From Mobula hypostoma (Eukaryota): DNA of 64,000 nt. A program made the position numbers and the translations under genes. The DNA is taken from the NCBI RefSeq assembly GCF_963921235.1, contig NC_086097.1, forward strand, positions 81,346,001 through 81,410,000, in the 5' to 3' direction. Below the pieces are notes generated by a model. That model was not told the DNA's origin, made no database searches, and saw only the letters and a list, made by a program, of their open reading frames with translations. Below, one piece after another: positions 9,644 through 55,992 of the stretch. Each line of letters starts with the position of its first letter. The first letter of the stretch is position 1.

Positions 9644-9918
9644 GAGCAAGAAGGCTGCGAATGAACGGCTGATTTTCAGAGCGAAGCCAGTTCTTACCAC
9701 TCGGGGTAAAAGAAAGGCAGGTGCGTGATGTCGGCCAGTAGAGCACGAAAGGTTTAAAAAGGCAAGAAACCTTCAACGGTTTTTGATTGGGAGCAAGAAG
9801 GCTGCGAGTGAACGGCTGATTTTCAGAGCGAAGGCAGTTTTTACCACTCGGGGTAAAAGAGAGGCAAGACTGCACAGGCATGTGATGTCAGCCAGTAGAG
9901 CGTGAAAGGTTTAAAAAG
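9644..9918 (+). repeat. Two ~147-bp tandem monomers in the CR1 5' UTR
   Basis: GAGCAAGAAGGCTGCGA.TGAACGGCTGATTTTCAGAGCGAAG...AAAGGTTTAAAAAG starts at 9644 and at 9791. Confidence 0.88.
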
Positions 9919-10048
9919 AAGACCGCCATATCCAGTGGGGAGCAGAGTGAGAAGCAGCAGAGTGATAGGGCTTCGGCTCAATGGGCTTTGGCAGTAACGG
10001 GACGAGGCGAGGTAGGTTTACCTGTGCTATTTGTGGAAAGGAGGAGGT

Positions 10049-10983
10049 ATGTGTATGAGGCCAGTTTTCTGTGCTCGGTATCAAATGTGGGAGATCCTGG
10101 AGTCTCCCAGCCTCCCGACGGCCATATCTGCACCAGGTGTGTCGAGCTGCAGCTCCTGAGAGACCGAGTTAGGGAACTGGAGATGCAGCTCGATGACTTT
10201 CACCTGGTCAAGGAGAGCGAGGAGGTGATAGAAAGGAGTTATAGGCAGATGGTCACACCGGGGCCACGGCAGACAGACAAGTGGGTCACAGTCAGGAGGG
10301 GGAAGGGGAAGAATCAGGTACTAGACAGTACCCCTGTGGCTGTACCCCTTGACAGTAAGTACTCCTGTTTGAGTACTGTGGGGGTGGACAGCCTACCTGG
10401 GGGAAGTGACAGTGGCCATGCCCCTGGCACAGACTCTGGCCCTATGGCTCAGAAGGGTAGGGAAAGGAAGAGGAAGGCATTAGTGATAGGGGACTATATA
10501 ATTAGGGGGTCAGACAGGCAATTCTGCGGATGCAGGAAAGAAACTCGGATGGTAGTTTGCCTCCCAGGTGCCAGGGTCCGGAATGTTTCATATCGCATCC
10601 AAGATATCCTGCAGTGGGAGGGAAAACAGCCAGAGGTCGTGGTACATATTGGTACCAATGACATAGGTAGGAAAAGAGAAGAGGTCCTGAAAAAAGTCTA
10701 CAGGGAGTTAGGAAGGAAGTTGAGAAGCAGGACCGCAAAGGCAGTAATCTCAGGATTACTGCCTGTGCCAAACGACAGTGAGAATGGTAATAGAATGAGG
10801 TGGAGGATAAATGCGTGGCTGAGGGATTGAACCAGGGGGCAGGGATTCAGATTTCTGGATTATTAGGACCTCTTTTGGAGCAGGTATGACCTGTAGAAAA
10901 ATGACGGGTTGCACGTGAATCCCAGACGGACCAATATCCTGACAGGGAAGTTTGCTAAGACTACTGGGAAGAGTTTAAACTAG
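10049..10983 (+). pseudogene. CR1 ORF1 (zinc finger/leucine zipper + SGNH/GDSL esterase), disrupted
   Basis: HICTRCVELQLLRDRVRELEMQL, VIGDYIIRG, CLPGA, VVHIGTNDI, DGLHVN; internal stops at 10828, 10864, 10894; terminal TAG 10981-10983. Confidence 0.9.
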
Positions 10984-13879
10984 AATTGTTGGGGGGTGGG
11001 AACCCAACTGAAGAGACTGGGGAAGAGGCGGTTGGCTCACAAATAGAGAAAGCTTGTAGACAGTTCGAGAGGGAGGATAGGCAGGTGATAGAGAAGGGAT
11101 GCGCTCAGACTGAAGGTTCGAGATGCATCTGTTTTAATGCAAGGAGCATTGTGAACAAAGCGGATGAGCTTAGGGCGTGGTTCAGTACTTGGAGATATGA
11201 TGTGGTGGCCATTACAGAGACTTGGATGGCTCAGGGACAGGAATGGTTACTTCAAGTGTTGGGTTTTCGATGTTTCAGAAAGGACAGGGAGGGAGGCAAA
11301 AGAGGTGGGGGCATGGCACTGTTGATCACAGATAGTGTCACGGCTGCAGAAAAGGTGGACGCCATGGAAGGATCGTCTACGGAGTCTCTGTGGGTGGAGG
11401 TTACAAACAGGAAGGGGTCAATAACTTTACTGGGTATTTTTTACAGGCCACCCAATAGCAACGGGGATATCGAGGAGCAGATAGCGAAACAGATCCTGGA
11501 AAGGTATAATAATAACAGAGTTGTCGTGATGGGAGATTTTAATTTCCCAAATATCGATTGGCATCTTCCTGGAGCATTTTTAGATGGGGTGGAGTTTGTG
11601 AGGTGTGTCCAGGAAGGTTTCTTGACACAATATGTAGATAAGCCTACAAGAGAAGAGGCTGTACTTAATTTGGTATTGCGAAATGAACCTGGTCAGGTGT
11701 CAGATCTCAGTGGGAGAGCATTTTGGAGATAGTGATCATAATTCTATCACCTTTACAATAGCACTGGAGAGAGATAGCAACAGACAAGTTAGAAAAGCGT
11801 TTAATTGGAGTAAGGGGAATTATGAAGCTATCAGGCAGGAAATTGGAAGCTTAAACTGGAAACAGATGTTCTCAGGGAAAAGTACGGAAGAAATGTGGCA
11901 AATGTTCAGGGGATATTTGTGTGGAGTCCTGCAAAGGTAAGTTTCAATGAGACAGGGAAGTTATGGTAGGGTACAGGAACCGTGGTGTACAAAGGCTGTA
12001 ATAAATCTAGTCAAGAAGAAAAGAAAAGATTACAAAAGGTTCAGAGAGCTAGGTAATGTTAGAGATCTAGAAGATTATAAGGCTAACAGGAAGGAGCTTA
12101 AGAAGGAAATTAGGAGAGCCAGAAGGGGCCATGAGAAGGCTTTGCGGGCAGGATTAAGGAAAACCCCAAGGCATTCTACAAGTATGTGAAGAGCAAGAGG
12201 ATAAGACGTAAGAGAATAGGACCAATCAAGTGTGACAGTGGGAAAGTATGTATGGAACCAGAGGAAATACCAGGGGTACTTAATGAATATTTTACTTCAG
12301 TATTCACTATGGAAAAGGATCTTGGTGATTGTAGTGATGAATTGCAGCAGACTGAAAAGCTTGAGCATGTAGATATTAAGAAAGAGGATGTGCTGGAGCT
12401 TTTGGAAAGCATCAAGTTGGATAAGTCACTGGGACCAGATGAGATGTACCCCAGGCTACTGTAGGAGGCGAGGGAGGAGATTGGTGAGCCTCTGGCGATG
12501 ATCTTTGCATCATCAATGGGGACAGGAGAGGTTCCAGAAGATTGGAGGGTTGCGGAAGTTGTTCCTTTATTTAAGGAAGGGAGTAGAGATGGCCCAGGAA
12601 ATTATGGACCAGTGAGTCTTAAGTTAATGGAGAAGATCCTGAGAGGCAGGATTTATGAACATTTGGAGAGGTATAATATGATTAGGAATAGTCAGCATGG
12701 CTTTGTCAAGAGCAGGTCGTGCCTTACAAGCCTGATTGAATTTCTTGAGGATGTGACTAAACACATTGATGAAGGAAGAGCAGTAGATGTAATGTATATG
12801 GATTTCAGCAAGGCATTTGGTAAGGTACCCCATGCAAGACTTTTTGAGAAAGTAAGGAGGCATGGGATCCAAGGGGACATTGCTTTGTGGAATCAGAACT
12901 GGCTTGCCCATAGAAGGCAAAGAGTGGTTGTAGACGGTCATATTCTGCATGGAGGTCGGTCAAAGGTGGAGTGCCTCAGGGATCTGTTCTGGGACCCTTA
13001 CTCTTCATGATCTTTATAGATGACCTGGATCAGGAAGTGGAGGGATGGGGTTTGCTGATGACACAAAGGTTGGAAGTGTTGTGGATAGTTTGGAGGGCTG
13101 TCAGAGGTTACAGTGGGACATTGATAGGATGCAAAACTGGGCTGAGAAGTGGCAGATGGAGTTCAACCCAGATAAGTGGGAGGTGGTTCATTTTAGTAGG
13201 TCAAATATGATGGCAGAATATAGTATTAATGGTAAGACTCTTGGCAGTGTGGAGGATGAGAGGGATCTTGGGATCCGAGTCCATAGGACACTCAAAGCAG
13301 TTGTGCAGGTTGACACTGTGATTAAGGCGTCATCTGGTGTATTGGCCTTCATCAATCGTGGAATTGAATTTAGGAGCCGAGAGGTAATGTTGCAGCTATA
13401 TAGGACACCGGTCAGACCCCACTTGGTGTATTGTGCTCAGTTCTGGTCGCCTCACTACAGAAAGGATGTGAAAGCCATAGAAAGAATGTGGAAGCCATAG
13501 AAAGGGTGCAGAGGAGATTTACGAGGATATTGCCTGGATTGGGGAGCATGCCTTATGAAAACAGGTGAGTGAACTTGACCTTTTCTCCTTGGAGCGACGG
13601 AGTTTGAGAGGTGACAAAGATGATGATGAGAGGCATTGATCGTGTGGATTCTCAGAGGCCGTTTTCCCAGGACTGAAATCGTTGCCACAAGATGACACAG
13701 GTTTAAGGTGCTGGGGTGTAGGTACAGAGGAGATGTCAGGGGTAAGTTTTTTTACTCAGAGAGTGGTGAGTGCATGGAATGGGCTGCCGGCAACGGTGGT
13801 GGAGGTGGATACAATAGGTTCTTTTAAGAGATTTTTGGATAGGTACATGGAGCTTAGAAAAATAGAGGGCTATAGGTAA
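10974..13879 (+). pseudogene. CR1 ORF2 (APE endonuclease + reverse transcriptase), disrupted
   Basis: Chain of ORFs at 10986, 11683, 11947, 12186, 12498, 12971, 13045, 13682 with EN and RT motifs in the expected order. Confidence 0.92.
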
Positions 13880-18813: not shown

Positions 18814-20224
18814 ATCTATTCCATCATCTATATTATCAATATACAGCATAAAAAGAAGTGGTTCTAACACTGACCCATGCAGAGCACCACTGGTTACTGA
18901 CAGCCAACCAGAAAAGGATCCTTTTATTTCGACCAATCAGCCAATTCTCTAACTATGTTAGTAATTTTCCTGTAATACCATGGGCTCTTAACTTGGTAAG
19001 CAACCTCATGTATGGCACCTTGTTAAGGCCTTCTGAAAATCCAAATATGCAACATTACCGGATCCCCTTTGTATATCCTACTTGTAATCTCAAAGAATTC
19101 CAACAGGTTTGTCAGGCAATTTTTTCCCCTGAGGAAATCATGCTGATTTTGTCCTATCTTGTCCTGTGTCACCAAGTACTCCAAAACCTCATCCTTCATA
19201 ATCGACTCCAACATCTTCCCAACCACTGAGGTCAGATCTAATTGCAGTAACTGGGCTCCATGAAGTGGTAGGTGGGGAGGAGAAAGAGCATGAACATCAG
19301 CATAAACCTCAGCATAAACCTCACACAAGCGTACATTCTGGACACAGCCATTGAGTGTCTCAGGTCTGCTGTACCTTGCAATGAGACTTTATTCTTAACC
19401 AATTACCCAGCTTTGATTGCACAGTTTTTAATATCCTGGCTACAAATTTCTTCTTTCTTCCATAAAAATTTCATGCAGGCCCTTCTAAGAGCATTACAAT
19501 GCAAACGCAATTGCTAATGTGTTAATTATCACAAGGTTTCAATTCATTCTGTGTCAATTTGTTTACTTCCTGAGCTATTCCTCACATTTTAATAGTGATC
19601 AGTGACACAACTGACAGTGATGCTAAGAAAGGTTTCATGCAGCATTAGTTACAGGAACGTAAGTGCTTATCCATCTTCGATTTATAAATCTCATTGGGAT
19701 TTGAAAGAGATTTGAAATTGCAATGGTAAAACATCAATCCAGTGCTTCATTAGATAGCAAATCTTCCACCAACAGGAGACAAAAATCTAAAATAGTTGTC
19801 AAAAAGTTTGCCATCCATTACTCAGCTTAAAGTCTATATTGAAGGTAAACGTTTGTCCGTCTACCAGTTTTGAAATTGATAATTTAAAATTGCTGGTTGA
19901 GAAATACAATAAAAAGAGAACTGATTCAAGTGTTACTCTTCTATACTGAATACAGTTTAGCCAACCAGACAGAACTTTGACAAACTAGGTTATCCTAAGA
20001 TAACTAAATTATATAACAGGTGGTGTTAAGAGTACTTAAGGAAGATGCAATTATCTATGAAATATATTTTAATCTTTTTTTAAATTTTATCTCATTACAT
20101 TGTAAGAGACCAACATAATATTTAACAGGAAAAGATGAGATATCCTAGGCCTTGTAGTCAAGTCATAAAATAGCCTGGAAGACACTTTCTCATTCTTTCA
20201 CTGTTACAGTACTTAATGTTTCAC

Positions 20225-21727: not shown

Positions 21728-24700
21728 CTGATTAGAGTACCGCGCAGATGCAACAGGAGCATTCCTGCATAGATCCAACAAAGAGCTTGAAAAAGCAGCA
21801 AGTTTTTCGACCGCAGTCATTGATTGGAGTACTGCGCAGACACAACAGAAGCGTTCGTGCACAGGTGTGACAAAGAAACCCAATCTCTATAAAAGAGAAG
21901 TACTGCCTAGCAAAGCGTCATCATGGGAGTGGTCATTATTGGAGTCGTCTGAGTCTGAGTAGGAAGGCTTTTGCTCAACGGGGCTTCGGCAATAACAGGC
22001 AGAGTCTAGGTAATTTCATTCCTCATTTCATATTCAACTCTGGAGATACTATGGGGCATATCTTCAGAACCAGTGTTCTGTTCTGGCTGTCCGATGTGGG
22101 ATTTCCAGGAGACTCCCAGCCTCCCTAATGGCCACATCTGTGCAGGTGTATCGAGATGCAGCTCCTTAGAGACTGAGTTAGGGAACTGGAGCTTCAGCTC
22201 GATGACCTTCGGTTTGTTAGGGAAAGTGAGGCAGAAATAGACAAGAGGTGCACGGAGGTAGTCACCCCAAGGCTACTGGAGACAGATAAATGGGTGACTG
22301 TCAGGAGAGGGAAAGGAGAACGTCAGATAGTGGATAGCACCCCTTGACCGTTCCCCTCAACAATAAGTACTCCATTTTGAGTACTGTTGCGGGAGACAAC
22401 CTACCTGGGGGAAAGCAACAGTGGCTATGCTTCTGGTACTGAGGCTGGCCCTGTGGCTTAGAAGGGTAGGGAACTGAAGATGATGACAGCAGTCATAGAT
22501 GGACTCTACAGTCGGGGGATAGATAGGGGATTCTGTGAACGCAAAAAGGAAACACAGATGGTAGTTTGTCTCCCGGGGCCAGGGTCCGAGATGTTTCTGG
22601 AGGCATCCACAACATCCTGAAAAGACTGGGTGAGCACCCAGAAGTCGTGGTATATATTGGTACCAACAACATAGGAAGAAAAAGGGAGGAGTTCCTGAAA
22701 AAATAATATAGGAAGTTGAGAAGGAAGCTGAGAAGCAGGACCTCAAAGGTAGTAATCTCGGGATTGCTGCCAGTGCCATGCAGCAGTGAGTATAGGAATA
22801 GAATGAGGTGACAGATAAATGCGTGGCTGAAGAATTGGAGCAGGGGGCAGGGATTCAGATTTCTCGATAACTTGTACCTCTTCTGGGGCAGGTGGGACCT
22901 ATATAAAAGGGGCAGGTTGCACTTAACTCCAAGGTGGGCCAATATTCTTGCAGGCAGATTACTAGAGCTGTTGGGAGTGGCTTAAACTAATATGGCAAGG
23001 GAATGGGAACCAGGATGACAGAGCTGAGGATAAGCCAGCAGGTTTACAAGTAGATGATGGGTGTAACATGAATGTAAGGAAGGACAAGCCAATGATCGGC
23101 AGGTACAAATGCAGACCAAGCAAAGAGCTAAGTTGTACCACAGAGCTAAAATTCATAAGGGCGAAGAATGCAGGACTGAATATGCTGTATTTAAATGCAC
23201 ACAGCGTTCAGAATAAGATGGACAAACTTGTTGGGCAATTAGAGATTGGTCAGTATGACATTATGGGCATCACTGAGTTGTAGCTGAAAGAAGGCCTTAG
23301 TTGGGAGCTTAACATCAATGACATACTTTTTATCGAAAGGCCAGGCAGGAAGGCATAGGCGGTGGTGCGGCTCTGTTAGTAAGAGATGAAATTACATCTT
23401 TAGAAAGAGGTGACATAGGGTCACAGAATGTTGAATCTTTGTGGATGGAGTTAAGAAATTGCAAAGGTGAAAAAAAAATTATGGGAATCATATAAAGGCC
23501 TCCAAAGAGTAGCCAAGCTGTGGGGTTCAGATTGCAAAGGGAGCTGGAGAAGGCATGTAATAAGGGTAGCGACACAATTGTAATGGGGGACTTCAATATG
23601 CAAGGGGCACGGGAAAATCAGGTTGGTGTTGGATTACAAGAGAGGGAATTTGTTGAATATCTATGAGATGGCTCTTGAGAGCAGCTTGTGTTTGAGCCCA
23701 CTTGGGGAAAGGCTATCTTAGATTGGGTGTTGTGTAATACCCTAGATCGTATTAGGGAGCTTAACGTAAAAAAACCCTCAGGAGGCAATGATCATAATAT
23801 GATTGAATTCATACTGCAATTTGAGAGGGAGAAGCATAAATCACATGTATTTGTATCACAATGGAATAAAGGGAATTACAGAGGCATGAGAGAGGAGCTC
23901 ATCCAGGTGGATTGGAGGAGGATACTAGCAGGGATGACGACAAAGCAGAGATGGCTTAACTATCTGAGAATAGTTCACAAGGTGCAGGATAGACATGTCC
24001 CACAGAGGAAGAAGTTCTCAAATGGCAGGGGAAGGCAACCATGGCTGACAAGGGAAGTTAAGGACTGCATAAAAGCCAACAAAAGGGCATATAAGGTAGC
24101 AAAAGTGAATGGGAAGTTGGATGATTGGAAAGCTTTTAAAATACAACAAAAGACAACTAAAAAAGCAATAAGAAGGGAAAAGATGAAATATGAGGGCAGA
24201 CTAGCCAATAATATAAAGCAGGATACCAATTTTTTTTTCAATAGATTTTCAATAGGTACATTTAATGCCAGAGAAATGTATACAAATCTGTATACATCCT
24301 GAAATACTTTTTCTTCAGTTATATAAAAAGTAAAAGGGAGGTGAGAGTTGATATTGGACCACTGGAAAATGATCCTGATAAGGTAGTTATGGGGGACAAA
24401 GAAATGGCAGATAAACTTACGGGGTACTTTGCATCTGTCTTCACTGTGGAAGTCACTAGCAGTGTGCCAGTGGTTTATGAGTGTCAGGGAGCAGGAGTAA
24501 GTGCCATGGTTATTAAAAAGGAAAAAGTGCTAAGCAAACTCAAAGATCTCAAGGTGGATAAGTCACCTCAATCAGATGGACTACATACCCGAGTCCTGAG
24601 AGATGTTGCTGAAGAAATAAAGCATGCATTGTTCATGATCTTTCAAGAATCACTTGATTCTGGTATGGTCCAAGAGGACTGGAAGATTGCAAATGTCACT

Positions 24701-42229: not shown

Positions 42230-45200
42230 AGCAGGGGAGTGGAAACCGGAGTGAAAGGACTCAGAATAGGACAGATGATAAAAAAGCAAAGATAGCGTGC
42301 AGTCCGACTGCCAGGAAGGGCAGGCAGATGATACGACAAAATTGTAGCCAGAAGGGTGAGTATCAGTGCGTTTGGGATACAGAATCAAAAAAGATAGCAA
42401 AAACAGTACTCAAAGTGTTGTATCTCAATGCACAAGTGTAACCCTCAGGTTCAGCCAACAGCACTAGTCTAGAGGAAGACACTCCTTGGCCCGCCAAACT
42501 TGTGAAATCTCGTTTGTGTGGATGCTGCATGATGTTTTCCCCATTACAAATCAGTACCACGAAATAACAAACAGTACACCATATGCAATTAAATGATTTA
42601 GCTTTATAATTCTTAATTTTACTCGAGGATTAGTAAAGAAAACAAAAAGGAAAGAGTCTATTTTAATGAAAGAGTCTAATGTGCACATTGGGGCTCATGA
42701 TTCCCCCAGGCATCATCGATTCCCGACCCTGTTCCAAGTCCACTCCATCCTGCAGTCTACAACCTCTCCATTCTGACATCTTCTCTCTCCATCTTCTGCT
42801 AAACGAAAGCCCGCGACCACCTCGCTTTCAGGCACACAAGAAAGAAAAACGCTTCACTCATTGGACACGGTACATTCCAAAGCCCCCATTATCTCTAGTC
42901 ATAACCCAAACACTGCTGCTACAGAGAAACTATTACATTAGCAGTGAAACCTTTCCCAGGGAGTTACATAAGAAATAAGGCGGATGATCTTGTTGCAATT
43001 TTACAGGTTGTCAGGTACGATGTTGTGGCTGTCACTGCATCATGGCTGAAGGATGATTGCAGGTGGGAGCTAAATGTCCAAAGTTATACATTGTATCAGA
43101 GAGATAGAAAGGTAGGCAGAGGGGATGGCGTGGCTCTGTTGGTAAAGAATGGCATCAAATTAGTAGAAAGCTGTGAAATAGGATGTTGAAACCATGTAGC
43201 TTGAGTTAAGAAACTGCAAGGGTAAAAGAACCTTGATGACAGTTATATACAGGCCTCCCAAGAGTAGCTAGGATGTGGACCAGAGAATATAATGGAAATA
43301 GAAAAGGCGATTAAAAAGAGCACATTATGATAGTAATAGGAAATTTTAACATGCAGGTCAATTGGGAAAATCAGGTTGGAAATGGACCTCAAGAGAGTGA
43401 GTTTGTTGAATGCATATGAGATGACTTTTTAGAGCGGTTTGTCATTGAACCTACTAGATGATCAGCTATACTGGATTTGGTGTTATATAATGAACCAGAG
43501 GTAACTCGGGAGCTTAAGGTTAAAGAGCCCTAAGGAGCCAGTGATCACAATATAATTGAGTTCAACTTGAAACTTGATAGGAAGAAAGTAAAGTCTGACA
43601 TAACAATATTTCAGTGGAGTAAAAGAAATTACAGTGGTATGAGAGAGGAGTTGGCCAAAGTAAATTGGAAGGAGATGCTGGCAGCAGTGACAGCAGAGCA
43701 GCAATAATGTCAATTTCTGGGAAAAATGAGGAAGGTGCAGGATAGATGTGTTCCAAAAATAGAGAAGTGCTCAAATGGCAAAATAGTACAACCTTGGCTG
43801 ACAAGGGAAGTCATAGCTAAAATAAAAGCGAAAGAGAGGGCATACAACAAAGCAAAACTTAGCGGGAAGATAGAGGATTGGGAGGCTTTTAAAAACCTTC
43901 AGCAAGCAACTGAAAGAATCATTAGGAGGGAAAAGATGAAACATGAAAGCAAGCCAGCAAACAATATCAAAGTGGATAGCAAAAGCTTTTTCAAGTATGT
44001 AAAAAATAAAAGAGAGATGAGTGGATATAGGACCACTAGAAAATGAGACCGCAAAAATAATAACCGGGGCGTGGGGAGGGGGTGGCAAGAAGATGGTAGA
44101 TGAACTAAATTAGTTATTTTGCAACACTCTTCACTATGGAAGACACTAGCAATGAGCCAGATTTTGAAGAGTGAGGGGGAAGAGAAGTGAGTGCAGTTAC
44201 TATTACAAAGGAGAAGGTGCTCAAAAAGCTGAAAAACCTAAGGGTACATATTCCAGATGAACTGTACCATATGGTTCTGAAAGAGGTAGTGGTAGAGATT
44301 GTAGACAGATTAGTAATGATTTTTCAAAGGTCATAGGACTCTGGGATGAGGACAAGAAAATTGCAAGTGTCACTTCACTCTTTAAGAAAGGAGGAATGCA
44401 GCAGGAAGGAAATTATACAGCAGTTAGCCTGACTTCAGTGGCTGGGAAGCTGTTGGAATCAATTGTTAAAGATGAAGCTATGGAGTATTTGGTGACACAG
44501 GACAAGACAGGACAAAGTCAGCACAGTTTAGGAAAAATCATCCTGACGAACCTGTTGGAATTCTTAGAGGATAGATAAAGGGGGTGCAGTGGATGTTGTT
44601 TATTTGTTCTTTCAGAAGGCCTTTGACAAGGTACCACATATGAGGCTGCTTCCCAAGTTCAGAGCCCATGGTATTAGAGGAAAGTTACTGGCAAGGTTAG
44701 AGCATTGGCTGATTGGTAGGAGGTAACGAGTGGGAATAAAAGGAACTTTTTCTGGTTGACTGCCAGTCACTAGTGGTGTTCTGGAGGGATCGGTGTTGGG
44801 ATCATTTCTATCTGTGCTGTGTATCTATTATTTAGATCATGGAATTGATGGCTTTGTTGTCAAGTTTGCAGGTGATATGAAGATTGGTGGTAAGGCAGGT
44901 AGTATTGAGGAAACAGGTAGGCTGCAGAAGGACTTAGACAGATTAGGAGAATGACCAAAAAATGGCAAATGAAATACAATGTTGGAAAATGCATGGTCAT
45001 GTACTTTGACAGTCGAAATAAATGCGCAGACTAGTTTCTAAACAGGGAGAAAATCCAAAAATCTAAGAAGCAAAGGGACTTGGGAATCTTTGTGCAGTAC
45101 ATCCTAAAGGCTAATATGCAGATAGAGTTGGTGGTGAGGAAGGCACATGCAATGTTAGCATTCATCTCAAGAGGTCTAGAATACCAGAGCAGGGATGTGA

Positions 45201-48117: not shown

Positions 48118-48631
48118 CAATGCATACATACTCCGTGGCCAGTCCCCTCAGTCATTAGTATACCAACTTTGGATGCTGCTGGGACATGACCCGCTGGGGG
48201 CTGCCTGGCACTGAGTCTGGCTCTGTGGCTCAGAAAAAAGTGGGGGGGAGGAGAGAAGAAAAGTGCAGTCGTGATTGGGGATTCCATATTTAAAGGAGCA
48301 TTCAAGAGATTCTGTGGACATGATTCGAAGAAGGAAGTCTGAGAATCGGAGCGGGAGTGCGGAAGAAGCCATTCTTGAATTTTTCGGGTTTTTTTTCCAA
48401 TCGGCATTCAGAGAGGTGGGACTGCGCAGGCGTGTGACGTTGGGCAGAGAAGCACATAAGACTTAAAAGGAACAGAGCCTCATACAGCGGGCAGGCTAGT
48501 TCGCGGGCGGCGGAGTGAGCCGGGAGCAGAGTGAAGGCTTAAGGGCTTCAGCTCAACAGGCTTAGGTGGAAACGGGCAAGGCGAAGGGGGTTTGGTTTCA
48601 TTTTTTGTTGTTATTTGAGGAGAGGGGCAGT

Positions 48632-49681
48632 ATGAGTGTGAGGGCAGTTTGTTGTTCTCGGTGCCGAATGTGGGAGGCCCTGGAGTCTCCAAGCCTCCCG
48701 GACGTCCACATCTGCGCCAGATGCGTCGAGATGCAGCTCCTAAGGGACCGCGTTAGGGAACTGGAGCTGCAGCTCAATGACCTTCGTCTGGTCAGGGAGA
48801 GTGAGGAGTTGATAGAGAGGAGTTACAGGCAGGTGGTCACACCAGGGCCACGGGAGGCAGACAACTGGGTCACGGTTAGGAGGGGTAAGGGGAAGAGTCA
48901 GGTAATAGAGAGTACCCCGGTGGCTGTGCCCCTTGACAATAGGTACTCCTGTTTGAGTACTGTTGGAGGGGACAGTTTACCTGGGGGAAGAGACAGTGGC
49001 CGTGCCTCCGGCACAGAGACCGGCCCTGTAGCTCAGAAGGGTAGGGAAAGGAAGAGGAGGGCAGTTGTAATAGGGGACTCGATAGTAAGGGGGTCAGATA
49101 GGCGATTCTGTGGACGCAGTCCAGAGACCCGGATGGTAGTTTGCCTCCCTGGTGCCAGGGTCCAGGATATTTCTGATCGCGTCCAAGATATCCTGAAGTG
49201 GGAGGGTGAGGAGCCAGAGGTCGTGGTACATATAGGTACCAATGACATAGATAGGAAAAGGGAAGAGGTCCTGAAAGGAGAATATAGGGAGTTAGGATGG
49301 GAGTTGAGAAAAAGGACCGCAAAGGTAGTAATCTCGGGATTACTGCCTGTGCCACGCGACAGTGAGAGTAGGAATGCAATGAGGTGGAGGATAAATGTGT
49401 GGCTGAGGGATTGGAGCAGGGGGCAGGGATTCAAGTTTTTGGATCACTGGGACCTCCTTTGGCGCAGGTATGACCTGTACAAAAAGGACGGGTTACACTT
49501 GAATCCTAGGGGGATCCATATCCTGGCAGGGAGATTTGCGAGGGCTGCTGAGGTGACTTTAAACGAGAATGGTTGGGGGGGGGGGAGGGTGGGAATCAAA
49601 TTAAAGAGGCTAGGAGAGGGGAGGTTAGTTCACAACAGGGGGATGGGAACAAGTGCAGAGAGACAGAGGGATGTAAAATGA
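48632..49681 (+). CDS. CR1 ORF1p: CxxC...CxxC zinc finger, leucine zipper, SGNH esterase; normal stop lost (GAG at 49565-49567)
   Basis: MSVRAVCCSRC...HICARC...LRDRVRELELQL; VIGDSIVRG, CLPGA, HIGTND, DGLHLN all intact. Confidence 0.9.
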   Translation: MSVRAVCCSRCRMWEALESPSLPDVHICARCVEMQLLRDRVRELELQLNDLRLVRESEELIERSYRQVVTPGPREADNWVTVRRGKGKSQVIESTPVAVPLDNRYSCLSTVGGDSLPGGRDSGRASGTETGPVAQKGRERKRRAVVIGDSIVRGSDRRFCGRSPETRMVVCLPGARVQDISDRVQDILKWEGEEPEVVVHIGTNDIDRKREEVLKGEYRELGWELRKRTAKVVISGLLPVPRDSESRNAMRWRINVWLRDWSRGQGFKFLDHWDLLWRRYDLYKKDGLHLNPRGIHILAGRFARAAEVTLNENGWGGGRVGIKLKRLGEGRLVHNRGMGTSAERQRDVK

Positions 49682-52626: not shown

Positions 52627-53187
52627 TCATACTGAATGGCGGTGCAGGCTCGAAGGGCCGAATGGCCTACTCCTGCACCTATTTTCTATGTTTCTATGTT
52701 TCTATGAAAGAGATGCTCAGATGGTATGTTGTCTCCCAGGTGCCAGGATCAAGGGTGTTCTTGGATCGGATCCACAGCATTCTAAAGGGGGATGGTGAAA
52801 GCAGAATGTAGTGATACACTTTGGTACCAATGACATAGGTATGAAAAGGGAAGAGATCATGAAGATAGAATACAGGGAGTTGGGTGGGAAGCTGAAAAGC
52901 AGGACCTCCGTGGCAGTAATCTCAGGATTGCTGCTTGTGCCATATGCCAGTGAGGTTAGGAATAGCACAATTTAGCAGATCAATGTGTTGCTCAGGAAGA
53001 GGTGCAGGGGCAAGATTTCAGATTTCCGGTTCATTTGGGGATCTTTTCTGGGGAAGTTATGATCTGCACAAAAAGGATGGGTTGCACCTGAACTTGAGGG
53101 GGACCAATATCCTTGAGGGCACCTTTGGGGAGGGTTAACTAATTTGGCAGGGAAATGGGATCAGAGTGAAAGGACTGAGGATGGGGT

Positions 53188-54818
53188 AATAATAATAATT
53201 ATTATTATTATTATAACAACAACTTTATTGATCCCGAGTGGGAAATTATTTTGTTACACTGAGCAATAATAATAATAATAATAAATATAATAGTATTAAC
53301 TAATAATAAGATACAGAATACACAATAATAATTTACCAATGTGCAATAATGTGGAATACTGTGCAATAATAATGTACAAAATAATAAAACAGAAACTATT
53401 CTACTATGATGTATGTTCTCCTGTAGCACAGAGATGAACTGTTGTATATGCTTATTGCATTTTGTAGGAAAGATTTTCTGTAACGATCCTTGCGAACTGA
53501 ATGAGCCTGTTTGAAAGGGTAGTCTGCTGCTTATTCAGTAGGTCATGGAGAGGATGTGCCTGACTGTCTATAATGGATAATAATTTGTTTAGTGACCTCC
53601 TCTCCACCACTAACTCAAAAGAGTCTGGGTTGTAGCCAAGGACAGATCCAGCCTTTTTGATGAGTTTATTCAGTCTTTTTGCATCACCAGCACTGATGCT
53701 GCTCCCCCAACATAAAGCCACTGTGACGAAAAACCAAGTTATCAGAAGATTGATGCTACTGAGAGAGAGATAAGGGAGACAATGGAGAAACGTTCAAAAT
53801 GTTAATGAGAGAGGAGAGAGAGATAACGAAAAGAGACACAATTCAGAATATTGACAGACCGGTTGCTTTGAACCTGAACTGTTTGAAGTTTGATGGACAG
53901 GCGATACCCCAGCAGGGGGATAAAAAGAACAGGTTCGCTAAGGCACAACACACACCACGAGGTCACGAGATAACGAGACCCTGGAAGAGCGGTGTGCCCC
54001 CACAAGTTGGTGGAGTTGGAGGTCCGGTTCACGGGAACCGACCATAGACTCACAGGGTGAAAAGGGACGATCGGTGGGAACCTGGTGTGTGTGTCCATCC
54101 TTGCCTGGGTGCTGGGTTCACCGCAGAAGAACAATTGTATCCGGAATGGAGGAGTCACAGTCGGTGACCACAGCGGGATAGGAGACATAAAAGGGTCCAC
54201 CCGAAAGCCAACTGCGAAGAACATCAAAGGTCTGTTTGATTCAAAACTTGCATGTCTCTCTCTCTCTCCAACGGCACAACAGTGATTACTGCGAACTGTA
54301 CTAAGCTGAACTGAACTCTGCGTCACTTGAGACTGATCATTTTACTCCTAGACTGCGATAGAGCTTGGTTGATTCCTATTACCCTAAGTCCTGTGTACAT
54401 GTGTGTTTTATCATTGCTAACCTGTTGCATTTATATCCGTACGATTAGAGTACTGTGTTACTTATTTCTTTAATAAAACTTTATTAGCTTCCAGTAATCC
54501 AGACTCCAACTAGTGGTCCATTTCTGCTGGTTTGGCAACCCAGTTACGGGGTACGTAACACTGTAAGACTGCACCTGCTACAACAGACTGGTAAAAGATC
54601 TCCAACAGTCTGCTGCACACATTGAAGGATCTCAGCTCCTTAGAAAGTAGAGTCTGCTCATCCCCTTCTTGTAAACAACCTTGGTATTGATTTTCGACTC
54701 AAGTCTGTTGTTGAGGTGAACAGTATTTGTACTCCTCCACCATTGCAACTTCTTCTCCCAGAATGTATACAGGACTTGTCACTGTCCTCTTCCTCCTAAA
54801 ATCAGTCACCATCTCCCT
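53188..54818 (-). mobile_element. Rex1/Babar 3' part inserted in CR1 copy E, interrupted by a solo LTR
   Basis: - strand EMVTDFRRKRTVTSPVYILGEEVAMVEEYKY; ALCWGSSISAGDAKRLNKLIKKAGSVLG...HPLH; TAA/TAT-repeat tail at 53188-53215. Confidence 0.87.
53722..54560 (+). mobile_element. Solo LTR, same family as 1207-2273, opposite orientation
   Basis: TGTGAC...GTACGTAACA; last ~100 nt nearly identical to the reverse complement of 1207-1305; AATAAA at about 54472. Confidence 0.88.
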
Positions 54819-55992
54819 AATTAATTTTATACAGTCAATGCAGTGTGTAGCGAGGCTGTCAGGAAGGACAGGCAGATGACAGGGCAAAATTGCAGTCAGT
54901 GGCATGAGTTGAGGTGTAAAATAGAAACCACATTGAAAAGGGTGATGAACATAAGACTAAAGATGTTATGTTTGAATACACTCAGTATATGGAATAAGGT
55001 AGATAATCTTATAGCACAGTTAGAGATTGGCAGGTAAGACATTGTGGGATCCACTGAGTCGTGGCAGAAACAAGATAATAGTAGGGAGCCCAACCTCCAA
55101 GGATACACCTTATATTGAAAGGATGAACAGGTAGACAGAGGGGGTGGGCTGGCTCAGTTGATAAAGAAAGAAATCAAATCCTTTGAAAGAGGTGACATCG
55201 GATCAGAAGATGCAGGATCCAGGTGGATGGAGTTAAAAAACTGCAAGGGTAAAAAGGCTCTGATGGGAATTAAAGACCTCTGAACAGTAGCCAGGGTGTG
55301 GGATATAAATTACAACAGGAGATCGAAAAGGTTTGCAATAAGGTCAATGTTACAATAGTCATGGGGGTTCCCAATAAGCAAGCAGATTGGGAAAATTAGA
55401 CTAGTGTTGGATAACAAAAGGAGCAATTGGTAGAAACCCTACAAGATGGCTTCTTAGAGCAGCTTCTGGTTAAGCCCGCTCGGGAAAAGGCAATTCTGGA
55501 TTGAGTCTTCTGTAATGACCCAGATTTGATTAGGGAGCCTAAGATAAAGGAACCCCTTGGAGACAGTGATCATCATATGATAGATTTCACCTTGCAATTT
55601 GATAGGGAGAAGCTAAAGTCAGAGGTATCAGTAATACAGTGGATTAAAGGGAATTACAGAGGCATGAGAGAGGAGATGGCCAAAGCTGATTGGAAGGGGA
55701 CTCAAGCAGGGATGATGGCAGAACAACAATGACTGCAATTTTTGGGAGCAATTTGGAAGGTGCAGTATGGATACTTCCCAGAGAAGAAGTATTCTAAAGG
55801 GAGAATGATTCAGTGTATCATTCTCAGTGTATCAACATGACTGACAAGGGAAGTCAAAAGAAGCATAAAGGAAAGCACAACAATTAGATGCAAGTTGAAG
55901 AGTGAAAAAGCGAGTGTGGGTATCGGACTGCTGGAAAATAAAGCTGGAGAAGTAGTAATGGGGGACAAAGAAATGGCGCACAAATTTAATAA

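Follow-up and report, generated by a model that had tools for sequence, protein, structure and literature searches.

We report that a CR1 element in the genome of Mobula hypostoma carries, where its two open reading frames meet, the heptamer TTTAAAC directly followed by the stop codon of ORF1, and that this arrangement is retained in related elements of the same genome and in distant contigs. On these sequence comparisons, we give about an even chance to the reading that esterase-type CR1 LINEs have a programmed -1 ribosomal frameshift signal, of which this site is a fossil, and that the signal gives an ORF1-ORF2 fusion. In many vertebrates, the main retrotransposons belong to the CR1 group, whose esterase-type members are dominant in rays, sharks, turtles and birds. 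Translation of the second ORF in bicistronic LINEs is unsettled, even for human L1, and a conserved heptamer at the ORF1 stop provides a concrete hypothesis for the whole CR1 group. If frameshifting is the true mechanism, an ORF1-ORF2 fusion protein is predicted, the ratio of ORF2p to ORF1p would be tied to frameshift efficiency, and the motif would serve as an annotation rule for calling CR1 ORF2.

The element, copy A, lies in a stretch of 64,000 nucleotides that was analysed as a whole and is referred to as the window (Table 1). The initial annotation had described TTTAAAC in the X XXY YYZ register with the stop next to it, an ORF2 in the -1 frame that is closed upstream by TAA and open into the endonuclease, and the absence of an ATG ahead of the endonuclease. 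Each of these was confirmed in copy A. ORF1 reads AGT TTA AAC TAG at the junction, and the -1 frame is open for 257 aa, passing through the motifs CICFNARS and ITETWM, with the M of ITETWM as its first methionine. Copy A itself is a dead fossil. Its ORF1 contains in-frame stops (three in the final 52 codons, beginning with TGA at 10828-30) and its ORF2 is frameshifted, with at least two frame changes beyond 11732 and a remnant that runs on in shifted frames to ~13500.

Table 1. Junction features of CR1 copies in the window (positions counted from the first letter of the window)
Feature	Position	Strand	Remarks
CR1 copy A ORF1 remnant	10003..10983	+	zinc-knuckle/coiled-coil region and GDSL-type esterase; ends ...KSLN stop
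TAA closing the -1 (ORF2) frame, copy A	10956..10958	+	five codons upstream of the heptamer
Candidate slippery heptamer T TTA AAC, copy A	10974..10980	+	X XXY YYZ phase of ORF1
ORF1 stop TAG, copy A	10981..10983	+	adjoins the heptamer directly
G tract GGGGGGTGGG, copy A	10991..11000	+	begins 10 nt past the heptamer
Hairpin GTTGGG/CCCAAC, copy A	10988..11008	+	found in copy A only
ORF2 frame, first open stretch, copy A	10959..11732	+	linker and apurinic-type endonuclease
Copy B junction (diverged)	22981..22990	+	CTTAAAC TAA; first T mutated; family-B majority is TTTAAAC TAA
Copy C junction	49558..49567	+	TTTAAAC then GAG, stop lost; family-C majority is TAG
Copy D junction (decayed)	53133..53142	+	GGTTAACTAA; shorter by two bases than the majority sequence of family B

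The ORF1 of copy A is 67% identical over 10003-10980 (tblastn) to the ORF1 of an intact family-C relative, L070. That ORF1 matches the Pfam model Lipase_GDSL_2 above its cut-off (E 3.7e-12), and the ORF2 of this relative matches Exo_endo_phos (E 1.2e-10) and Exo_endo_phos_2, again above the cut-offs; RVT_1, on an ORF2 that is truncated, reached 23.3 bits against a cut-off of 29.6. We provisionally class the element as a CR1-group LINE with an esterase-type (type IV) ORF1, a label taken from the type of ORF1 and from the ORF2 of related bird/turtle-type contigs, which shares 50-66% identity with proteins of birds and turtles. When the Pfam esterase model was run against the ray genome itself, the best 150 matches were almost all from a single family, C2.

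The whole ORF1 remnant of copy A holds two in-phase X XXY YYZ heptamers, and the 25-nt overlap of the two frames holds one, TTTAAAC. As far as sequence comparison goes, chance is ruled out as the source of the junction motif because the motif is conserved in other CR1 families and in other hosts. Within the ray genome, TTTAAAC is present in 27/28 copies of family A, 23/30 of family B, 29/30 of family C, 18/19 of family C2 and 20/20 of family B2. The stop is TAG in families A (27/28), C (27/30) and C2 (16/19) and TAA in families B (27/30) and B2 (19 copies, with TAG in one), and at the majority level it adjoins the junction heptamer in every lineage examined, ray families and bird-type contigs alike. 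Around the unchanged heptamer, between roughly a quarter and two fifths of the positions differ among the families, as counted by eye. The ray families are nonetheless not independent witnesses, since the ORF1-junction module that they have in common is 76-81% identical among them. In five ray families and three bird-type contigs, the -1 frame opens only 1 to 6 codons upstream of the heptamer, and it opens further upstream in contigs L096, L105 and L093. In C2 and B2 it opens just two codons upstream, and a productive shift would therefore be confined to 16 nt. From the heptamer on, and upstream of any internal ATG, this frame is protein-like and conserved, with the patterns FKLxWxGxGN and FKLxxKGEGD.

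More distant comparisons came from metagenome contigs whose ORF1 is 27-34% identical. Bird/turtle-type junctions read TTA AAC, preceded by GCT or TCT, in all eight cases, the next codon being TAG in seven and AAG in one, and every contig that extends beyond the junction goes on into the -1 endonuclease frame. Contig L093 reads CAG GGA AAC TAG, which is another canonical X XXY YYZ heptamer, and a 517-aa -1 frame comes after it; contig L094 has G TTA AAC, an imperfect heptamer. Of 24 metagenome loci whose esterase ORF is complete, 14 lack the junction. Stingray and bird gene models read ...FKL... across the site in the -1 frame. A search for natural ORF1-EN-RT fusion proteins returned one match, a gene model that enters the -1 frame just upstream of the site; we do not count this lone model as evidence that such fusions occur naturally.

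The ends of ORF1 proteins repeat the pattern. Among chondrichthyan ORF1p (sharks, rays and chimaera) with an intact tail, 44/48 end in LN. The tail was intact in 105/150 diverse ORF1 representatives, which end in LN (51), GN (10) or KN (3); in total, Asn is final in 69/105 and other ends account for 36/105. LN, GN and KN tails are what is expected of XXXAAAC, because UUA, GGA or AAA followed by AAC reads so. On DNA, the GN class was seen in one contig only and the KN class is known from protein alone; a GN-class protein query returned only the LN-class family B2 from the ray genome and no relative from viral_contigs or genome_contigs. Terminal L and N do not vary in an alignment of 23 ORF1 proteins whose mean column identity is 48%.

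Codon choice at these positions is unusual for the gene. Across the bodies of eight ORF1s, 27/186 Leu codons are TTA and 11/52 Asn codons are AAC, and at the ORF1 end AAC is the terminal codon in 8/8 and TTA the penultimate one in 7/7 of the LN-ending ORF1s, with GGA in L093. Because TTA and AAC are in the minority among the Leu and Asn codons of these ORF1 bodies, their fixation at the ORF1 end points to a constraint on the nucleotides, as far as can be read from the codons. The codon ahead of TTA fits the same pattern: by ray family it is AGT, GGT or ACT, and it is always T-ending although S, G, T or A is encoded there. The residue ahead of LN is one that is unable to take a U-ending codon in 1/54 proteins versus a background of 14.7% (binomial P = 0.002, uncorrected for relatedness).

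Support for a stimulatory RNA structure was not found. The initial annotation had proposed a coronavirus-type signal with a 3' structure, in the form of a hairpin of GTTGGG (10988-10993) and CCCAAC (11003-11008). These arms are present in copy A, but the hairpin is private to it, with a fold z of -0.63; as a family feature it was rejected, the 3' arm in 28 family-A copies being CCGAAC in 15, CCAAAC in 5, CTGAAC in 4, other sequences in 3 and CCCAAC in the window copy only (1/28). Nor was any conserved or unusually stable structure seen in its place. In 14 copies, the 60 and 100 nt past the heptamer folded no better than shuffled sequence (RNAfold, z -0.63 to +1.65), and RNAalifold on seven bird-type junctions gave -0.73 kcal/mol with 0 compensatory pairs. 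A stem-loop or pseudoknot 5-9 nt past the heptamer is thus unsupported by RNAfold and RNAalifold, neither of which is a dedicated pseudoknot program. A short stem of the form GGC.../...GCC, noticed by eye ~27 nt downstream in bird-type contigs, was discarded, as no compensatory change backs it and its distance from the heptamer is too great.

What does recur downstream of the heptamer is a two-block G tract, comparable in all lineages while the residues that it encodes differ. From this recurrence we infer that the tract may have a function at the junction. A G-quadruplex was considered and rejected, the conserved G blocks being two adjacent ones only. Transcriptional slippage was likewise rejected: the G run is the sole long homopolymer, and it lies 3' of the ORF1 stop, where slippage cannot join the frames.

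Taken as a model, the frameshift would work as follows. In a live element, a ribosome translating ORF1 would meet T TTA AAC with the stop next in line. The majority of ribosomes would terminate and release ORF1p, and a minority would slip one base back, from UUA to UUU and from AAC to AAA, then read CUA instead of UAG and enter the endonuclease-RT frame. The product would be an ORF1p-ORF2p fusion at a low fixed ratio, comparable to Gag-Pol in retroviruses, and the adjacent stop, acting as a pause, possibly together with the G tract 7-14 nt downstream, would substitute for a hairpin or pseudoknot. We infer both the slippage itself and the fusion as a functional product from the conserved layout. 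As originally put forward, a -1 frameshift yielding an ORF1-EN-RT fusion agrees with the heptamer, the stop, the phase and the codon conservation, but not with the predicted structure or with a general lack of AUG.

The heptamers A AAA AAC and G GGA AAC are those of retroviruses and luteoviruses. A wider proposal, which we put forward tentatively and would not yet bet on, is that -1 frameshifting at XXXAAAC with UAG or UAA directly behind it could be the ancestral means by which esterase-type CR1 LINEs make their endonuclease-RT, in the form of an ORF1p-ORF2p fusion. Such a signal would need no pseudoknot and would draw on the termination pause, with the two-block G tract 7-14 nt downstream perhaps serving as a linear stimulator. 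Lineages would have replaced UUUAAAC by GGGAAAC, and perhaps by AAAAAAC, without loss of the mechanism.

Several known systems resemble the proposed signal in part. The -1 frameshift signal of coronaviruses such as IBV consists of U UUA AAC, a spacer and a pseudoknot. CR1 has the same heptamer in the same phase, and in both cases the overlapping -1 ORF encodes the polymerase; however, CR1 is without a supported spacer-plus-structure, its stop abuts the heptamer, and its RNA is that of a cellular retrotransposon. The likeness to retroviral and LTR Gag-Pol lies in a structural or accessory ORF followed by an enzymatic -1 ORF, in an XXXAAAC-type heptamer within the overlap, and in the low fixed ratio of fusion to first product that would be expected in CR1. 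CR1, in contrast, is a non-LTR element whose ORF1 is of the esterase type and not Gag; a stimulator was not found, and the element lacks a protease that could split the fusion. Of 51 animal LTR elements surveyed, 28 place pol in the -1 frame, and many of these have heptamer sites (PMC5009743). The Dictyostelium elements TRE5-A and TRE3-A are also non-LTR elements but belong to another LINE clade and another host. No description of a CR1 frameshift was found in the literature searched, where some CR1 and SART1 papers that were beyond reach may bear on priority, and the accessible parts of PMC13343379, PMC4120745, PMC3905857, PMC2734521, PMC5009743, PMC3708506, PMC1965478, PMC11835228, PMC4700185, PMC5911963 and PMC13534243 contain no statement of one.

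The foremost alternative to frameshifting, which we regard as doubtful though a serious contender, is termination-reinitiation. Here, the ribosome would terminate at the ORF1 stop, remain in part on the RNA and restart a few bases away in the -1 frame, at AUG, a near-cognate or any codon, so that ORF2p is made as a separate protein and TTTAAAC-stop is either a restart signal or simply the tail of ORF1p; if so, the conserved motif would mark a new reinitiation signal. Caliciviruses use an upstream 18S-complementary motif in termination-reinitiation. Among LINEs, SART1 relies on an overlapping stop-start (UAAUG) and downstream structure, the mechanism in other two-ORF non-LTR elements being 'not clear' according to the introduction of PMC3708506, and initiation of L1 ORF2 is considered AUG-independent (PMC5009743, PMC1965478). 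CR1 resembles SART1 and human L1 in having a bicistronic LINE RNA in which expression of ORF2 and the end of ORF1 are coupled (PMC3708506, PMC5009743, PMC1965478), whereas the ray CR1 families are without an overlapping stop-start, and the two terminal ORF1 codons of CR1 keep a slippery-type pattern, which the SART1 and L1 mechanisms do not need.

Start codons bear directly on this alternative. The constant position of the stop, always exactly at the junction, speaks for reinitiation, as does the second codon past the stop in the -1 frame of bird-type contigs, which is ATG in 3/8 and GTG in 2/8; one bird-derived protein model begins with this post-stop Met, two others having V or L there, and the corresponding codon in family A is TTG. 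That codon, two bases past the stop, is however TGG in families B, B2, C and C2 and TCG, TGG or TCC in the remaining 3/8 bird-type contigs, and none of the five ray families has a restart AUG overlapping the stop or within a few bases of it. Contig L093 has an in-frame ATG 14 nt upstream of its stop. Reinitiation also does not predict the minority terminal codons that form XXA AAC, the use of GGA after G in a lineage that went from Leu to Gly, or the LN, GN and KN classes of ORF1p tails, and neither RNAfold nor RNAalifold found a counterpart to the downstream structure of SART1. Frameshifting at XXXAAAC remains our preferred reading.

A further alternative, which we consider improbable, is that ORF2 has an internal start of its own, at an ATG ~40 codons down or at a non-AUG codon, and is translated through leaky scanning or an internal entry site, or else from a subgenomic or truncated RNA. 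The motif would then have another role, such as a C-terminus that ORF1p requires or an RNA element bound in the assembly of particles. Families B, B2 and C do have an in-frame ATG ~40-45 codons past the heptamer, ahead of the endonuclease, and the Asn end of 69/105 ORF1p tails could be a requirement of the protein. Against this, C2 has GTG where those families have the internal ATG, and neither of the abundant families A and C2 has any ATG in the -1 frame ahead of the endonuclease: the first Met of family A lies inside this domain, as does that of a full C2 copy (L138, residue 217). In addition, the -1 frame is protein-like upstream of the internal ATGs, and a need for Leu-Asn in the protein leaves the fixed TTA, the fixed AAC and the preceding T unexplained. 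When junctions are compared across CR1, as the initial annotation had suggested, TTTAAAC plus stop and the -1 phase persist, but the lack of an AUG does not extend to B, B2 and C or to the 3/8 bird-type contigs with ATG past the stop. It is very improbable that the motif does nothing and was merely inherited with a common ORF1 module, the -1 phase being a historical accident, for although the ray families share their ORF1-junction block and decayed copies mirror only their master copy, the motif is kept between ray and bird/turtle-type elements, across which synonymous sites should be randomised, and the heptamer is unchanged while its flanks differ.

Besides copy A, the window contains the junctions of three more CR1 copies (Table 1). 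In copy D, ~1.7 kb of other DNA lies between the junction and an ORF2 remnant at ~54840.

Copy A, by its sequence a copy of a CR1-type LINE, ends its ORF1 in AGT TTA AAC TAG, as the initial annotation had read it. Translation of all frames across 10800-11200 also bore out that a TAA at 10956-10958 closes the -1 frame upstream of the heptamer (TTTAAAC, in the X XXY YYZ phase of ORF1) and that the first Met of this frame is the M of ITETWM. After that TAA the -1 frame is open for 257 codons, to 11732, and contains the endonuclease motifs CICFNARS and ITETWM. In an intact relative, ORF1 matches the Pfam domain Lipase_GDSL_2 and ORF2 matches Exo_endo_phos, with an RVT_1 match below the cut-off in a truncated sequence. 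Copy A is a fossil, with three in-frame stops in the last 52 codons of ORF1 and at least two frame changes in ORF2 beyond 11732; the question of a programmed -1 ribosomal frameshift (PRF) is therefore one about the family, not about this copy. Immediately 5' of its ORF1 remnant, in the presumed 5' UTR, lies a direct repeat of ~120-128 nt (9644-9761 and 9791-9918, 86% identical); some CR1-group elements have repeated 5' subunits according to a figure legend (PMC13343379).

The junction recurs in the window and in the CR1 families A, B, B2, C and C2 of this genome (table). Three junction queries returned 3292, 3495 and 1728 candidates genome-wide and two ORF1 queries 29326 and 62270; scoring covered the 40-150 top candidates per query. 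The family A copies comprise the window copy, seven loci and 20 short stretches among the 40 best places, 12 places being left out; for C2, 20 stretches were taken and one, belonging to family A, was excluded. Among the ray families the codon ahead of TTA is AGT, GGT or ACT, its third base T throughout. Judging by sequence, C2 and B2 look young, and ORF1 is open over 341 (C2) and 324 (B2) codons in many copies. In both, the -1 frame opens just two codons upstream of the heptamer, which confines a productive shift to 16 nt.

Junction features in the window and heptamer and stop counts by CR1 family
Feature	Position	Strand	TTTAAAC	Stop directly after	Basis
Heptamer, copy A	10974-10980	+			sequence reading
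ORF1 stop, copy A	10981-10983	+			sequence reading
Further junction, copy B	22981				
Further junction, copy C	49558				
Further junction, copy D	53133				
Family A			27/28	TAG 27/28	
Family B			23/30	TAA 27/30	
Family B2			20/20	TAA 19, TAG 1	
Family C			29/30	TAG 27/30	
Family C2			18/19	TAG 16/19	

The ray families are not independent witnesses of this conservation, because across ORF1 plus the junction they share 76-81% of their nucleotides (window 9942-11042 against 48510-49635 and 22070-23011). This likeness stops 25-60 nt past the heptamer, and for the greater part of their length the ORF2 proteins of the same families show only ~30-45% identity. The pattern fits exchange of ORF1 modules between CR1 lineages; reticulate ORF1 evolution has been proposed (PMC4120745).

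Many more distant ORF1s carry the same ending. Of 48 intact-tailed ORF1 proteins from rays, skates, sharks, sawfish and chimaera, with identities as low as 37%, 44 terminate in LN, and no sequence departs from the terminal L and N in an ORF1 alignment averaging 48% identity per column. Searching 1.84 billion cluster representatives with a profile brought up 7333 matches; the 105 intact tails among the best 150 end in LN (51), GN (10, including 9 QGN), KN (3), SN (2), EN (2), FN (1) or otherwise (36). Leu, Gly and Lys have chemically nothing in common. Yet UUA, GGA and AAA before AAC are just what UUUAAAC, GGGAAAC and AAAAAAC, heptamers in use by coronaviruses, luteoviruses and several retroviruses, yield when read in the 0 frame.

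An alignment of 23 ORF1 proteins, run against metagenome contigs, picked out 45 loci with distant esterase ORFs, and we examined the 28 that matched near the ORF1 end. Four run off the contig, eight have a junction, two are broken copies retaining GCTTTAAAC(T/A)AG, and 14 have neither such a junction nor an endonuclease frame behind the esterase ORF, with the in-frame exception of L122. In that contig the ORF ends at a TGA (1326-1328) and endonuclease-like sequence goes on in the same frame, which suggests readthrough or a single-ORF layout in its lineage. Six of the junction loci and the two broken copies are of bird/turtle type and read GCT or TCT, then TTA AAC, then TAG (7/8) or AAG (1/8); their ORF1s are 27-34% identical to the ray-type query, and the ORF2 of one is 50-66% identical to annotated proteins of many birds and turtles. 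Locus L094 reads TCG TTA AAC TAG, imperfect at the first heptamer position, followed by a -1 frame of 492 aa, and L093 reads CAG GGA AAC TAG, which contains a different canonical heptamer and has a -1 frame of 517 aa behind it.

Codon choice at the junction is fixed. Eight ORF1s representing four deep lineages all finish in AAC; the codon before it is TTA in the seven with an LN terminus and GGA in the other one, L093. In the bodies of these ORF1s, by contrast, TTA makes up 27/186 Leu codons, AAC 11/52 Asn codons, and T 27% of third positions. K, E, Q, M and W, which no U-ending codon encodes, stand before LN in 1/54 representatives but account for 14.7% of the 15 residues further upstream (binomial P 0.002, relatedness ignored). 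The fixed terminal choice and the scarcity of such residues argue that what is kept is the RNA sequence rather than the ORF1p tail.

The reading with the best support, which we hold with middling confidence, is a -1 frameshift at an XXXAAAC heptamer that the ORF1 stop follows directly. The ribosome would shift at the heptamer with the stop next in line, in competition with termination there, and would produce an ORF1-ORF2 fusion. The main rival, termination-coupled reinitiation at the ORF1 stop, is possible though less probable. It agrees with a stop at the junction in all cases, with an in-frame ATG 14 nt upstream of the stop in L093, and with the second -1-frame codon past the stop in bird-type contigs, which is ATG in 3/8 and GTG in 2/8; one bird-derived model starts at that Met. 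In four ray families, however, this codon is TGG, and reinitiation gives no expectation of a slippery pattern or of L/G/K variants. An independent internal start for ORF2 is unlikely. An in-frame AUG before the endonuclease in a subfamily, named in the initial annotation as evidence against the frameshift, is present in three families, B, B2 and C, ~40-45 codons past the heptamer, where C2 has GTG. In the other two, A and C2, the ORF2 frame has no Met ahead of the endonuclease; the full C2 copy L138 has its first Met at residue 217, within that domain. A junction without function is very improbable.

The hairpin GTTGGG/CCCAAC, proposed as a stimulator of the frameshift, exists in copy A but is not a family feature. 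Its 3' arm is CCCAAC in only 1/28 family A copies, the window copy; the others have CCGAAC (15), CCAAAC (5), CTGAAC (4) or other sequences (3), and the majority arm puts a G-G mismatch mid-stem. Over the first 60 and 100 nt past the heptamer, predicted secondary structure was no more stable than that of dinucleotide shuffles (z -0.63 to +1.65; 14 copies, four families), and no conserved fold was found across seven bird-type junctions (RNAalifold -0.73 kcal/mol, no compensatory pair). Given these results and a hairpin private to the window copy, a coronavirus-type stimulator is not supported. A two-block G tract, beginning 7-14 nt past the heptamer, is common to all lineages (GGGGGGTGGGAA, GGGGGATGGGAA, GAAGGGGGAAGGGGA, GCGGGGGCGAGGGA, ATAGGGGTGAAGGG) and codes for varying residues (LGGGN, QGDGN, KGEGD, AGARD, RGEGH); it may act as a stimulator. 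Just past the ORF1 stop in family C (loci L039-L068; ~49575-49590 in copy C), a G run differs in length between copies, from 6 to ~11 G, and marks a hot spot of mutation: the -1 frame stays open in copies with 6, 9 or 12 G but closes 12-13 codons on in those with 7 or 10.

ORF2 translation in two-ORF non-LTR elements has been called 'not clear', with UAAUG used by SART1 (PMC3708506), and L1 ORF2 initiation is regarded as AUG-independent (PMC5009743; PMC1965478). A term search of papers on CR1 or esterase ORF1s (PMC13343379, PMC4120745, PMC3905857, PMC2734521) met no mention of a frameshift or overlap. A CR1 frameshift is likewise not reported in the literature covered by full-text search, which did not extend to Kapitonov and Jurka 2003 or the early work on CR1. 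The CR1 junction would be a case of retroelement -1 PRF, apparently unusual among these in having the stop directly behind the heptamer and no recognised structure.

Right behind the copy D junction stands ~1.7 kb of other DNA (53190-54830), starting with (TAA)n/(TTA)n simple repeats, and the ORF2 remnant picks up again at ~54840. More LINE ORF2 fragments, 33-57% identical to family C ORF2, lie at 42968-44637 and, on the minus strand, at 19029-19241. The sequence read upstream of them contains no ORF1, and they may be copies truncated at the 5' end or members of a family that lacks ORF1. The stingray gene model 'hydroxyacid oxidase 2 isoform X1' (P0337) is a CR1 ORF1-endonuclease read-through that switches from the ORF1 frame to the -1 frame just upstream of the slippery site. 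Several other CR1 matches bear host-gene names, and all of these are annotation artefacts due to CR1 copies.
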